NCBI GenBank assembly: GCA_041659765.1
Contig: JBAZXR010000001.1
Location: 787,338-851,337, forward strand
Origin: Patescibacteria group bacterium
GTDB lineage: Bacteria; Patescibacteriota; Patescibacteriia; UBA9934
Direction: 5' to 3'
Length of the DNA stretch: 64,000 nt
Both the position numbers and the translations under genes were made by a program. The number at the start of each line of letters is the position of its first letter. Within the stretch, counting starts at the first letter, position 1. Positions 39,984 to 41,821 of this stretch are shown one piece after another. Under the pieces are notes generated by a model. That model saw only the letters and a program-made list of their open reading frames with translations, did no database searches and was not told the DNA's origin.

Positions 39984-40073
39984 GGAGAGGTGTCAGAGTG
40001 GTCGAACGTACACGACTCGAAATCGTGTGTACCTGAAAGGGTACCGAGGGTTCGAATCCCTCCCTCTCCGCCA
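39984..40073 (+). tRNA. tRNA-Ser (anticodon CGA)
   Basis: GGAGAGG...CCTCTCC acceptor, anticodon stem CACGA/TCGTG loop CTCGAAA, long variable arm, GGTTCGAATCC T-loop, CCA encoded. Confidence 0.85.
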
Positions 40074-40181
40074 CGAAAATGTCTTATCGGATAACCCGCT
40101 CGCCTCAGGGCAGACGGAGCGATCCATAGGATCTTATCGATGCAAAACAACCCTTCGCGGGGTTGTTTTGTTATCACAGGT

Positions 40182-40901
40182 CTACTGTACAGGTATTGCG
40201 AGCGACCAACGTTCCTCGAAGTTTTTTCGTGTGATCATTGAAATGTCTTCACTAAGGCTAATGAGCATACTTTCTTTCTCGCCAAGATGGTTCAAACTAT
40301 TTCCTGAAAACCAGAAATGCTTTTTATCGGTGAAGTATCTGTCGTGCAAGTCGCCAGCTGCGTTAGTTCTAACTTCAATGGTGTAGCCCTCCTTTTTTAA
40401 GTCTTGAAGGGCTCTTGCGAATGAACCGCTGGGTTTGTCCGCAATCTTTTGGGTTAGGAGCTTAACAACAACTGCTTTCTTTAATCCTGCAATCACAACA
40501 TCTAAGGTATGGCAGTCCACGTACGGATCACAGACATATACGTTTCCGGATAGCTCAGAGATCATCGCTGCAAGAGACCTTTTGGCTGTGAAGGGTTTAT
40601 TTGGCTCAATAAAAGTAGCCTCGGCCCGGTCATTTTTAGTAGCCTTGAGCTGATTTTTGCCTGCCTCCATCAACCGATAACCCTCGCGATTTTTATGCAC
40701 CGCATGCCTTGCTGTCTTCAAAGCGTATTCAACAGCCTGATACGAAGTATTGATGCCGTGCGAATCTACAAGGTACTTTGCAATACCGACCGCCGTTAAC
40801 CGTCCGCTACCATGGTCTCCAATTTTGTCTAGTACCCAAAGAGCCTTCAAACGAACGGAACTGAGACTGTGCACATCAACCTGCTCGCTAATTCTTGGCA
40901 T
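40182..40901 (-). CDS. hypothetical protein (possible wHTH N-terminus; C-terminal HDRYFxD...FSGNSLN motif loosely PLD/HKD-like)
   Basis: A+T-rich ORF in islet 3' of tRNA-Ser; start uncertain (40952/40922/40901). Confidence 0.4.
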   Translation of the reverse strand: MPRISEQVDVHSLSSVRLKALWVLDKIGDHGSGRLTAVGIAKYLVDSHGINTSYQAVEYALKTARHAVHKNREGYRLMEAGKNQLKATKNDRAEATFIEPNKPFTAKRSLAAMISELSGNVYVCDPYVDCHTLDVVIAGLKKAVVVKLLTQKIADKPSGSFARALQDLKKEGYTIEVRTNAAGDLHDRYFTDKKHFWFSGNSLNHLGEKESMLISLSEDISMITRKNFEERWSLAIPVQ

Positions 40902-40905
40902 AACT

Positions 40906-41571
40906 TTACTTATAGACAACATAGAGCCACCGAGACTTCCCCTTCCCATCATTTTTTACCCTCGTCAGTATTTTCCGAGCAATAAAAGAGTCACGAATGG
41001 TTTTATCAATTACTCGAGAGTCACGAAAGACGTTGTTTTTTTCTAACTCGCTTACGACATCAAACATCGGTTTTGGAGTCGAGAAAAAGCCGTCATTAAC
41101 CAGTGTCTGAATATGGGAACCAATACCGGTGAATGCTTTTGATGACCTCGTTTTCTTTTTCATGGTCCGCACACCCCCTTCAGTGTCAGCGCTCTTCTCC
41201 AACTCGGACAGGAATGCGTCAATTTTGTAAGTATAAACAGAATACTCACCGTGACCCTCCTTTTTAACAAATCCTTCACTGGCCAATTTGCTTAGCCCCG
41301 AACCAATGGCCTCCATTCGCTGCCCGAGCACCTTAACAAGTTCACTCGGGCGAACTGTCCCAGGAATTTCCTCCTGAAAACAATGGGCAATGTGCCGGAT
41401 CACCAGACAAAGCCGCAATTGCTGAACTTTTGACAAATTCTTTGCATCAACAACAACCGTACCGTCACTAGTTATTCGGCCGAACTTAATCGCCCTGGTC
41501 GCCTGTTCTTCTGCGGTTTGTTTGTTGAAATCACCTTTGACAATAAACAAATTTTTAATATCGTCAGACAT
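40906..41571 (-). CDS. hypothetical protein (possible winged-helix region)
   Basis: 221 aa A+T-rich ORF, first gene of the two-gene islet. Confidence 0.4.
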   Translation of the reverse strand: MSDDIKNLFIVKGDFNKQTAEEQATRAIKFGRITSDGTVVVDAKNLSKVQQLRLCLVIRHIAHCFQEEIPGTVRPSELVKVLGQRMEAIGSGLSKLASEGFVKKEGHGEYSVYTYKIDAFLSELEKSADTEGGVRTMKKKTRSSKAFTGIGSHIQTLVNDGFFSTPKPMFDVVSELEKNNVFRDSRVIDKTIRDSFIARKILTRVKNDGKGKSRWLYVVYK

Positions 41572-41821
41572 ATCTTATCGGTTAGTTTTATTTCTTAGTT
41601 CGTATAATAGTCCTATTCTACAAGACATATTACGTTACGTCAATAAGGTAATATCGTATGGGATGAATATGAAATGACCGAGCTGGCCCACATGCCCTAA
41701 AATCTCCGCCCGATGAATCTTCAAAAACTCTTTCAAAGACCCTTGTGAATTTGGTGCTAAACCCACAGACACCGCCAACAAAACCCCATTTTGGGGTTTT
41801 GTTGTATCATCCTAACATTAT

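Follow-up and report, generated by a model that had tools for sequence, protein, structure and literature searches.

A two-gene insert beside tRNA-Ser in a Patescibacteria genome encodes a winged-helix protein with an HDR-type PLD-fold domain and its winged-helix partner

We analysed a 64,000-nucleotide stretch of the genome of a Patescibacteria group bacterium (GenBank assembly GCA_041659765.1, contig JBAZXR010000001.1, positions 787,338 to 851,337, forward strand; hereafter the window), in which an insert of 1746 nt lies directly after a tRNA-Ser(CGA) gene and carries two genes, A and B. Protein B joins a winged helix to a domain that is predicted to have the phospholipase D (PLD) fold and that keeps an invariant His-Asp-Arg (HDR) motif, and A is its winged-helix partner. 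On balance we think it somewhat probable that A and B form a conflict or defence (anti-phage or anti-plasmid) module with B as its nucleolytic effector, a function that we infer from association and motifs. A first-pass annotation, made by a model from the letters alone, had proposed an integrated defence-type module at this site. That proposal agrees with the setting of B homologues, which lie beside restriction–modification (R–M), toxin–antitoxin (TA) and HEPN genes, serine recombinases and tRNA-Ser, and with a match to the PADLOC candidate PDC-S05.

Insertion at the tRNA-Ser gene

An empty-site test anchored on the PGI gene led to a related metagenome contig, L020, with 72% identity in PGI. 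The PGI–EEP–EamA block of this contig corresponds to window positions 43528–41820, and 7 nt past the EamA homology we observed a 151-nt segment (L020:13783-13933), 81% identical to window 39919–40073, that comprises the promoter and gene of tRNA-Ser(cga). Homology between the window and L020 ends exactly at the CCA end of the tRNA (40073) and resumes at the start of EamA (41820), which identifies the intervening sequence, with both of its hairpins and the A promoter, as a lineage-specific insertion (Table 1). The first-pass annotation had suggested comparing this locus with that of relatives, and L020 does carry the tRNA beside EamA with neither A nor B at the syntenic site. No second copy of A or B was found in the window or in contigs L020–L023.

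The tRNA faces away from EamA in L020 but towards EamA in the window, and synteny on the other side of the tRNA is lost between the two. This difference in orientation points to an inversion or rearrangement with its breakpoint at the tRNA that apparently coincides with the insert; since the tRNA is inverted in the 'empty' relative, the history of the locus is more than a simple insertion. The tRNA of L020 has its own terminator-like hairpin directly after the CCA end.

Two short repeats were considered as traces of integration and rejected. The 8-mer TCTCCGCC (41703–41710), which the first-pass annotation had read as a weak match to the tRNA 3′ end, is present; the window has 6 copies of it where 2.7 would be expected, which is chance level, and no longer copy of the tRNA 3′ end was found in the insert or close to it. 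A 13/15 direct repeat (ATGTCTTATCGGATA at 40079–40093 and ATATCTTATCGGTTA at 41570–41584) brackets both coding regions, with one copy just after the tRNA and the other across the start codon of A. In 4.3 kb one expects about 8 pairs of this kind, the repeat does not coincide with the indel boundaries relative to L020, and it is probably due to chance. An exact-match scan of metagenome contigs with the 88-nt tRNA gave no matches. The flanks of the insert share no non-coding similarity with the flanks of homologous loci, so the ends of a mobile unit are not definable.

The drop in G+C content noticed at first sight over about 1.7 kb is the lowest in the window: the insert has a value of 0.442 against a window mean of 0.513 (standard deviation (sd) 0.033 for same-size segments), only 0.08% of 1746-nt segments are as G+C-poor, and all of the lowest ones overlap the insert. 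The dip is modest at ~2 sd. The G+C content at third codon positions (GC3) of A and B is 0.46 and is not unique, as NUDIX and VIT genes of the window each have 0.45.

The proteins encoded by A and B are identical to WC813_04510 and WC813_04505, respectively, of a Patescibacteria-group metagenome-assembled genome (MAG) with an 897-kb contig. The tRNA, the two minus-strand genes and the 221-aa length of A were all correct in the first-pass annotation, but the overlap that it described between the genes was not. Homologue alignment and the NCBI annotation place the start of B at the ATG at 40901–40899, which gives 239 aa; the 256-aa open reading frame is the mechanical maximum and not the preferred reading. 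This start lies 4 nt past the TAA of A (40908–40906), so the two genes do not overlap and are translationally coupled. In an Rfam scan of the insert, the tRNA was the sole credible match, and two sub-threshold matches overlapping it are due to chance.

Fold and signature of protein B

We examined B with an AlphaFold 2 (AF2) model (predicted local distance difference test (pLDDT) 91), which consists of a winged helix (residues ~1-95), a linker helix and an alpha/beta domain (~100-239). In this model the C-terminal half of B has the PLD fold. Structure comparison with Foldseek placed two TrmB-type regulators at the top (weighed below), followed by Nuc, Zucchini and NucT and then by FAM83, MITD1, PLD3/4 and the nuclease domain of SauUSI. 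The E-values of the PLD nucleases (Nuc, Zucchini, NucT, PLD3/4 and SauUSI) ranged from 2e-6 to 3e-5, and in a viral structure library B matched PLD proteins only.

The family of B is large. We found 46 close homologues with 35-54% identity, all of them metagenomic or from Patescibacteria, and hmmsearch collected 2962 representatives at 50% identity with E <= 1e-3, 150 of them at E <= 1e-30. Conservation was read from an alignment of 151 sequences (P0001 and the top 150 of these representatives), and domain libraries were scanned with 37 diverse members. The best-conserved part of the family is the stretch HDRYFTD(x6)FSGNSLN. His186, Asp187, Arg188 and Gly200 are present in 148/151 sequences, the remaining three being gapped there; Asp125, within DPY, is found in 146/151 and Lys209 in 132/151; and position 204 is Asn in 84 sequences and Lys in 61. 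The resulting signature, DPY...HDR...GxS(L/I)(N/K), corresponds in B to D125-P-Y, H186-D-R188-Y and G200-x-S-L-N204. The first-pass annotation had likened this region loosely to a PLD-type motif with Arg in place of Lys, and the Foldseek matches, the invariant His-x-Arg and the likeness to an 'HDR' clade around MIT_C all bear it out.

We looked for a relation to MIT_C at the profile level. A search of PDB sequences with a profile of close B homologues gave nothing significant, and a diverse B profile matched only the MIT_C domain of MITD1 (E = 0.019), with DPY, LLTS and HDR aligned. Alignment of the B family to MIT_C by hhalign gave a probability of 89% (E = 2.4e-6), in which 'EDPY' and 'IHDR' of MITD1 align with DPY and HDR of B. 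Pfam MIT_C itself was matched weakly, by 3/37 members below threshold (best E = 5.6e-4). With its invariant signature, B matches the MIT_C-like 'HDR' clade of PLD domains, as judged from these alignments.

The statement of the first-pass annotation that the proteins have no recognisable domains holds in part. Pfam gave no family at threshold for B, although PLDc_2 matched weakly over almost its full length (E = 0.017, model positions 3-132 of 132). The NCBIfam model VPA1262_N_dom matched B with E = 7e-9, under its cut-off. With PADLOC, two PDC-S05 profile hidden Markov models matched B at E ~1e-11, and E-values within the family went down to 7.7e-18 (PADLOC thresholds not applied); among the 37 members, PDC-S05 was matched by 36, NsnC by 7 and DrmC by 1. 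Pfam TrmB (PF01978) and Regulator_TrmB had no match in B or in the 37 members at E <= 0.01.

A plasmid collection gave only three distant matches to B, which share the PLD domain, and two other representatives of the family gave none. One of the proteins that share only the HDR-PLD domain, from an Azotobacter plasmid, is encoded with an AIPR gene on one side and a type I R subunit on the other. Three contigs with close B homologues (43-55% identity), L014 (CAYHTI010000020.1), L015 (JAURXW010000455.1) and L019 (CAZMXT010000008.1), are assigned in public MAG bins to Gammaproteobacteria, Bacteriovorax and Pseudomonadales; these bins could reflect mis-binned Patescibacteria contigs or recent horizontal transfer.

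Partner genes of B

Protein A has five close homologues, and a profile search extended this number to 72. The AF2 model of A (pLDDT 80) comprises an N-terminal winged-helix module (~1-130), a disordered basic linker (131-149) and a C-terminal winged helix (150-221), and A is accordingly modelled as a tandem winged-helix protein. The winged-helix-like N-termini suspected at first pass thus appear in the models of both proteins. Foldseek matched A to generic tandem or MarR-type winged helices (MarR, IclR and ScpB-type), none at E <= 1e-3.

We then compared 14 independent loci with upstream sequence: the window, L001, L003, L005, L006/L019, L007-L009, L010, L014-L018, L027 and L028. A locus search with a narrow B-family alignment had yielded 6 loci. 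In 14/14 the B homologue closes a set of closely spaced genes that all run in one direction. One to three partners per locus combine four recurrent modules: N, the N domain of A; C, the C domain of A, which occurs as three tandem small genes in L003; X, a family of proteins of 137-194 aa; and a B-N-like winged helix that resembles the N terminus of B. The partner proteins matched no family in Pfam and no PADLOC model convincingly, and Pfam, NCBIfam, PHROGs and PADLOC placed none of A, B and the partners in a known toxin or antitoxin family.

Related partners also occur with other 3′ genes. In Alphaproteobacteria (Stappia sp. ES.058 and a MAG; L011:5514-7472 and L013:5488-7464), X-like and A-like genes are followed by a gene for a 249-aa protein that has a MarR-like C terminus and is unrelated to B. 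In L012:6001-7730, X-like and A-like genes precede genes for 121-aa and 232-aa proteins, and the larger of the two weakly matches DUF4145. This exchange of the 3′ gene behind A-like and X-like partners suggests that the effector is swapped and that the partners form a multi-winged-helix scaffold with exchangeable effectors. L011 and L013 both have tRNA-Arg genes at a distance of ~1 kb or less.

Genomic neighbourhoods of homologues

The neighbourhoods of B homologues are typical of defence or mobile islands (Table 1). Three times independently, a tRNA-Ser gene borders the module or the island. In the window, tRNA-Ser (CGA) lies 108 nt from the stop codon of B; in L006/L019, tRNA-Ser (ACT; L006:4724-4809, L019:6820-6905) is convergent with the B homologue, 108 nt beyond its stop codon; and in L007, tRNA-Ser (GCT) overlaps the 3′ end of the recombinase gene. 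The anticodon ACT, as called by ARAGORN, is unusual, and a normal tRNA-Ser(GCT) stands 1.8 kb beyond it. The sequences of L006 and L019 are identical and were assigned to different bins, one labelled Pseudomonadales.

Inverted repeats flank the module-bearing island in three independent loci, L001, L007 and L016. The repeats are unrelated between loci, and none was found around the window copy or in L014. The contigs L008 (1-5322) and L009 (1-5447), from two metagenome assemblies, carry the same 3.7-kb cassette of A, B, methyltransferase, ApaLI-like endonuclease and C protein genes (99.8-99.9% identity) in both orientations relative to the same flank of GIY-YIG and dienelactone-hydrolase genes. 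Comparison of the two contigs indicates an inversion polymorphism across the inverted repeats of the cassette. The short-read contigs L002 and L007 break at these repeats.

Putative regulatory elements

The insert contains two perfect hairpins, neither of which has a T-run or was called by a terminator scan. The one between the convergent tRNA and B 3′ ends may act as a bidirectional terminator. The other, at the right end of the insert, had been placed at 41787–41810 in the first-pass annotation; the hairpin is real, and its coordinates are those of Table 1. It is an orphan, 17 nt before the start of the divergent EamA gene at a point where no gene ends, and may serve as an insulating terminator. 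Upstream of A we found a sigma-70-like promoter match, a kind of match that is no commoner in the insert than in shuffled sequence. An inverted repeat over its −35 hexamer is a candidate operator for autoregulation, and in L007, too, a repeat of this kind lies over a TTGACA ahead of the A homologue.

Table 1. Features of the insert and of loci with B homologues (window positions unless a contig is named)
Feature	Position	Strand	Remarks
tRNA-Ser(CGA)	39984–40073	+	Left boundary of insert; ARAGORN and Rfam tRNA
Lineage-specific insert, 1746 nt	40074–41819	none	G+C 0.442; missing at the syntenic L020 site
Hairpin, perfect 11 bp, CAAAACAACCC-6 nt-GGGTTGTTTTG	40143–40170	none	Between convergent tRNA and B 3′ ends
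Gene B, 239 aa, NCBI WC813_04505	40182–40901	−	Winged helix and single PLD-fold domain; predicted effector
Gene A, 221 aa, NCBI WC813_04510	40906–41571	−	Tandem winged-helix protein (modelled)
Sigma-70-like promoter match, TTGACG-17-TAGAAT, 10/12	41615–41643	−	Ends 43 nt upstream of A start codon
Inverted repeat, ATATTACGTTA-6 nt-TAAGGTAATAT, 10/11	41627–41654	none	Spans −35 hexamer of A promoter
Hairpin, perfect 13-bp stem, CAACAAAACCCCA-TTT-TGGGGTTTTGTTG	41776–41804	none	Right end of insert
L001 inverted repeat	L001:1631-1733 / 6779-6881		103 nt, 100%; around partner gene, B and R–M system
L007 inverted repeat	L007:1-92 / 3738-3829		~90 nt, 99%; around island
L007 second pair	L007:3924-4057 / 5474-5607		131-134 nt, ~95%; brackets serine recombinase gene beside tRNA-Ser
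L016 inverted repeat	L016:4736-4806 / 11212-11282		71 nt, 90%
L001 neighbourhood			MmeI-like type IIG enzyme
L007-L009 neighbourhood			DNA methyltransferase directly after B, ApaLI-like endonuclease, C protein
L016 neighbourhood			881-aa methyltransferase directly after B, Xre-like gene
L017 neighbourhood			Type III Res and Mod, AAA_15/AAA_21 ATPase
L010 neighbourhood			Phd/ParE, Imm5-like gene
L027 neighbourhood			HEPN, GHKL ATPase
L028 neighbourhood			CopG antitoxin
L006/L019 and L007 neighbourhoods			Large serine recombinases

Relation to published systems

A comparative analysis of Menshen described an effector domain, 'PB-PLD1', in NsnC, with Asp or Glu after strand 2 and HDR before strand 5 (PMC12065111). 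Its authors called PB-PLD1 'highly similar' to MIT_C, found it also at the C termini of BrxL and proposed, as a prediction, that PB-PLD1/MIT_C-like domains are enzymes (PMC12065111). The features that define the clade in that work recur in the B family, where the acidic residue is D125 (146/151) and H-D-R is kept in 148/151. A survey of BREX counted 1030 BrxL proteins with an HKD-endoDNase domain in which Lys is replaced by Arg ('HRD'), and its authors judged this domain likely to be active. HDR domains are found in human MITD1, in about a third of the BrxL proteins of type-1 BREX and in NsnC variants of Menshen.

B shares its fold and its acidic/HDR signature with the C-terminal domain of MITD1 (PF16565), with PB-PLD1 of NsnC and with the C terminus of BrxL. 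It differs from them in architecture and company: the known HDR domains are fused to a MIT domain, to an inactive PIN domain (NsnC) or to an AAA+/MCM-like ATPase (BrxL), whereas B is a stand-alone protein of 239 aa with an N-terminal winged helix, and the B family is linked to tandem-winged-helix partners, the known systems to the cores of Menshen or BREX. PDC-S05 is defined as a single-gene system, unlike the B clade, which has partner genes upstream in all of the loci compared; PDC-S05 appears heterogeneous, and one of its representatives lowered the plating of T7, T5 and T4 in E. coli.

Single-motif PLD nucleases (Nuc of pKM101, NucT, Zucchini/MitoPLD, BfiI and the SauUSI domain) resemble B in having one motif per chain, an invariant His at the nucleophile position and Gly at +14. 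They differ from B, which has Arg for Lys, Asp at +6 and not +7, and Ser and Asn/Lys shifted by one. In BfiI and SauUSI, a PLD nuclease is fused to a DNA-recognition or motor domain and serves restriction.

Fusions of winged helices and nucleases, including PLD-wH proteins, have been studied as type IV enzymes that depend on N6-methyladenine (6mA). These fusions (DpnI, Mrr and the PLD-wH candidates Aba4572I and CbaI) and B each combine a winged helix and a nuclease-type domain in one chain, and both groups occur among R–M genes, the window itself having no cognate methyltransferase. The domain order is opposite, wH-PLD in B and PLD-wH in Aba4572I and CbaI, and the published PLD-wH proteins have HxD/Ex4K motifs where B has HDR. 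B also has obligatory partner genes, and a likeness of its winged helix to the 6mA reader of DpnI is not established.

Discussion

The 1746-nt insert is an acquired mini-island, and in the reading that we favour it would carry a self-contained two-gene conflict module. The winged helix of B would place the protein on DNA. By analogy with Nuc, BfiI and Zucchini, the PLD domains of two B molecules may pair in a homodimer that brings two HDR motifs together, and B may cut phosphodiester bonds without metal through a covalent phospho-histidine at His186, while the phosphate would be bound by Arg188 and by Asn204, a position filled by Asn or Lys in the family. The most likely role of A is that of operon repressor, bound to the inverted repeat that covers its −35 box; as an antitoxin-like protein or a specificity subunit, A may in addition hold B in check or direct it to targets. 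The outcome would be restriction of foreign DNA or abortive infection. The B family travels with mobile defence islands, and the module itself probably passes from one genome to another on small cassettes, integrative or invertible, which favour tRNA-Ser and in many cases bring R–M systems along; the window copy seems to keep only the minimal two-gene cargo.

Several observations weigh against this proposal. B departs from the canonical HxK(x)4D(x)6G(S/T)xN motif, reading H186-D-R188-(x)3-D192-(x)7-G200-N-S-L-N204; the motif Lys has become Arg and the spacing differs by one position, a variant that is itself invariant across the family. Catalysis by HDR-type PLD domains, that of the B family included, is predicted from sequence, and MITD1, the only solved member of the HDR clade, is a membrane-binding module according to the title of a reference cited in PMC12065111. 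The PDC-S05 match of B spans only model positions 127-292 of 306 (~54%), and the representative that was tested against phages has a Virulence_RhuM domain that gives no match in B, so the phage phenotype of PDC-S05 is not transferable to B. A search of a phage collection found no relatives. Around the window copy we found no other defence gene, and within ±8 kb of the insert no recombinase or integrase, as the first-pass annotation had also stated. Nor is there a direct repeat of the tRNA 3′ end, which had been put forward as worth seeking: an 18-mer taken from the tRNA end finds no further match within or close to the insert at <=3 mismatches. The neighbourhood evidence consists of 14 loci and carries no enrichment statistic.

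A further point on the same side is that the top whole-chain Foldseek match of B is TrmBL2 (5bpd; E = 7e-9, TM ~0.4). The matches to TrmBL2 and TrmB (3qph), with E = 7e-9 to 3e-6, have the same domain order as B, and the PLD-like domain of these regulators is not an enzyme. This ranking makes a non-catalytic regulator a live rival: A and B would be ordinary DNA-binding regulators, with B TrmB-like, its HDR pocket binding a phosphate-containing ligand and A acting as co-regulator, and the pair would control neighbouring genes or its own cassette, for example R–M expression. The winged helices of both proteins, the likeness of A to MarR, IclR and ScpB-type folds, the inverted repeat over the A promoter and the co-directional DNA methyltransferase that follows B in L007 and L016 would all suit such a pair. 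We nevertheless consider it rather unlikely. B shares domain order and architecture with TrmB and TrmBL2 but has no sequence or profile relation to them by Pfam or hhalign. It keeps a catalytic-type His-Asp-Arg, unlike TrmB and TrmBL2, and the invariant His-Asp-Arg...Gly-x-Ser across ~3000 diverged proteins is the signature of MIT_C/PB-PLD1. The B family is found with islands and R–M systems, TrmB and TrmBL2 with sugar operons, and a patchy, mobile, island-bound distribution would be odd for a housekeeping regulator. EamA and EEP exist in L020 without A and B and hence need no such regulator, and the R–M systems beside homologues have C proteins of their own.

A role as a TA or addiction module that stabilizes its carrier cassette, with B as toxin and A as DNA-binding antitoxin and autorepressor, seems to us quite unlikely, although a tightly coupled operon with the helix-turn-helix gene first, a palindrome over its promoter, conservation of B alongside varying partner genes, and a frequent location on mobile, inverted-repeat-flanked or recombinase-associated cassettes and beside other TA genes are what such a module would display. 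A and B are larger than typical type II components, they match no known TA family in Pfam, NCBIfam or PADLOC, and the window module persists without a mobile element to stabilize; one to three partners made of interchangeable DNA-binding modules fit target recognition or regulation better. We regard as very improbable the idea that A and B rearrange their own cassettes, B by strand transfer through a phospho-histidine and A by recognizing the ends. The long inverted repeats around module cassettes in three loci (L001, L007 and L016), the L007-type cassette in both orientations relative to the same flank and the inverted tRNA beside EamA in L020 would be expected of such factors. However, the window copy and L014 lack the repeats, which are unrelated between loci; two loci have serine recombinases; RecA-type recombination at repeats of 70-190 nt would suffice for inversion; and we know of no natural precedent for a recombinase of the PLD family. 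A bolder form, in which B is a PLD-type DNA transesterase guided by multi-winged-helix partners that inverts or moves inverted-repeat defence cassettes, is a long shot; if true, it would make B a new metal-independent class of site-specific DNA rearrangement enzyme.

The B family offers the HDR domain in its simplest setting, a 239-aa protein with one partner, and A-B is possibly the first minimal and genetically tractable setting for a demonstration of the disputed catalysis of HDR-type PLD domains (MIT_C, BrxL-C and NsnC-C), with the clear prediction of EDTA-resistant cleavage that depends on His186 and Arg188. Small-genome Patescibacteria are thought to carry few defence systems beyond R–M, and ~3000 clusters at 50% identity, almost all metagenomic, would widen this repertoire if the defence function is true. 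The combinations of partner modules and the swapped 3′ gene point to a recognition scaffold with exchangeable effectors as a new organizing principle. Were B only a TrmB-like regulator, little of this would be of wider interest. The HDR domain clade and its predicted defence role are already in the literature, and a PADLOC candidate touches the B family. In the literature we found no description of a stand-alone wHTH-HDR-PLD protein, of obligatory combinatorial winged-helix partners of such a protein, or, for Patescibacteria, of a link between such a protein and tRNA-Ser, serine recombinases and inverted-repeat cassettes.

Other features of the window

The genes around the insert are ordinary and include HIT, NUDIX, nucleoside deoxyribosyltransferase-like, EamA, EEP-family, PGI and redox enzyme genes. 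A bona fide TrmB-family regulator (37602–38378; Pfam TrmB helix-turn-helix, E = 5e-14) is encoded 1.6 kb upstream of the tRNA. We considered B as a relative of this gene and rejected it, as hhalign gave a probability of 1.3% despite the shared architecture.

Three G+C-rich patches of the window are more atypical than the insert, the genome having ~50% G+C. One contains two phosphoribosyltransferase/PRPP-synthetase-like genes (35452–37545; G+C 0.60-0.61, GC3 0.77-0.80), one a 145-aa open reading frame without a Pfam match (43629–44066; G+C 0.62, GC3 0.82), and the third lies at about 24000–28000. Between EEP and PGI, the segment at 43.6–44.1 kb is missing from L020, where other sequence takes its place.

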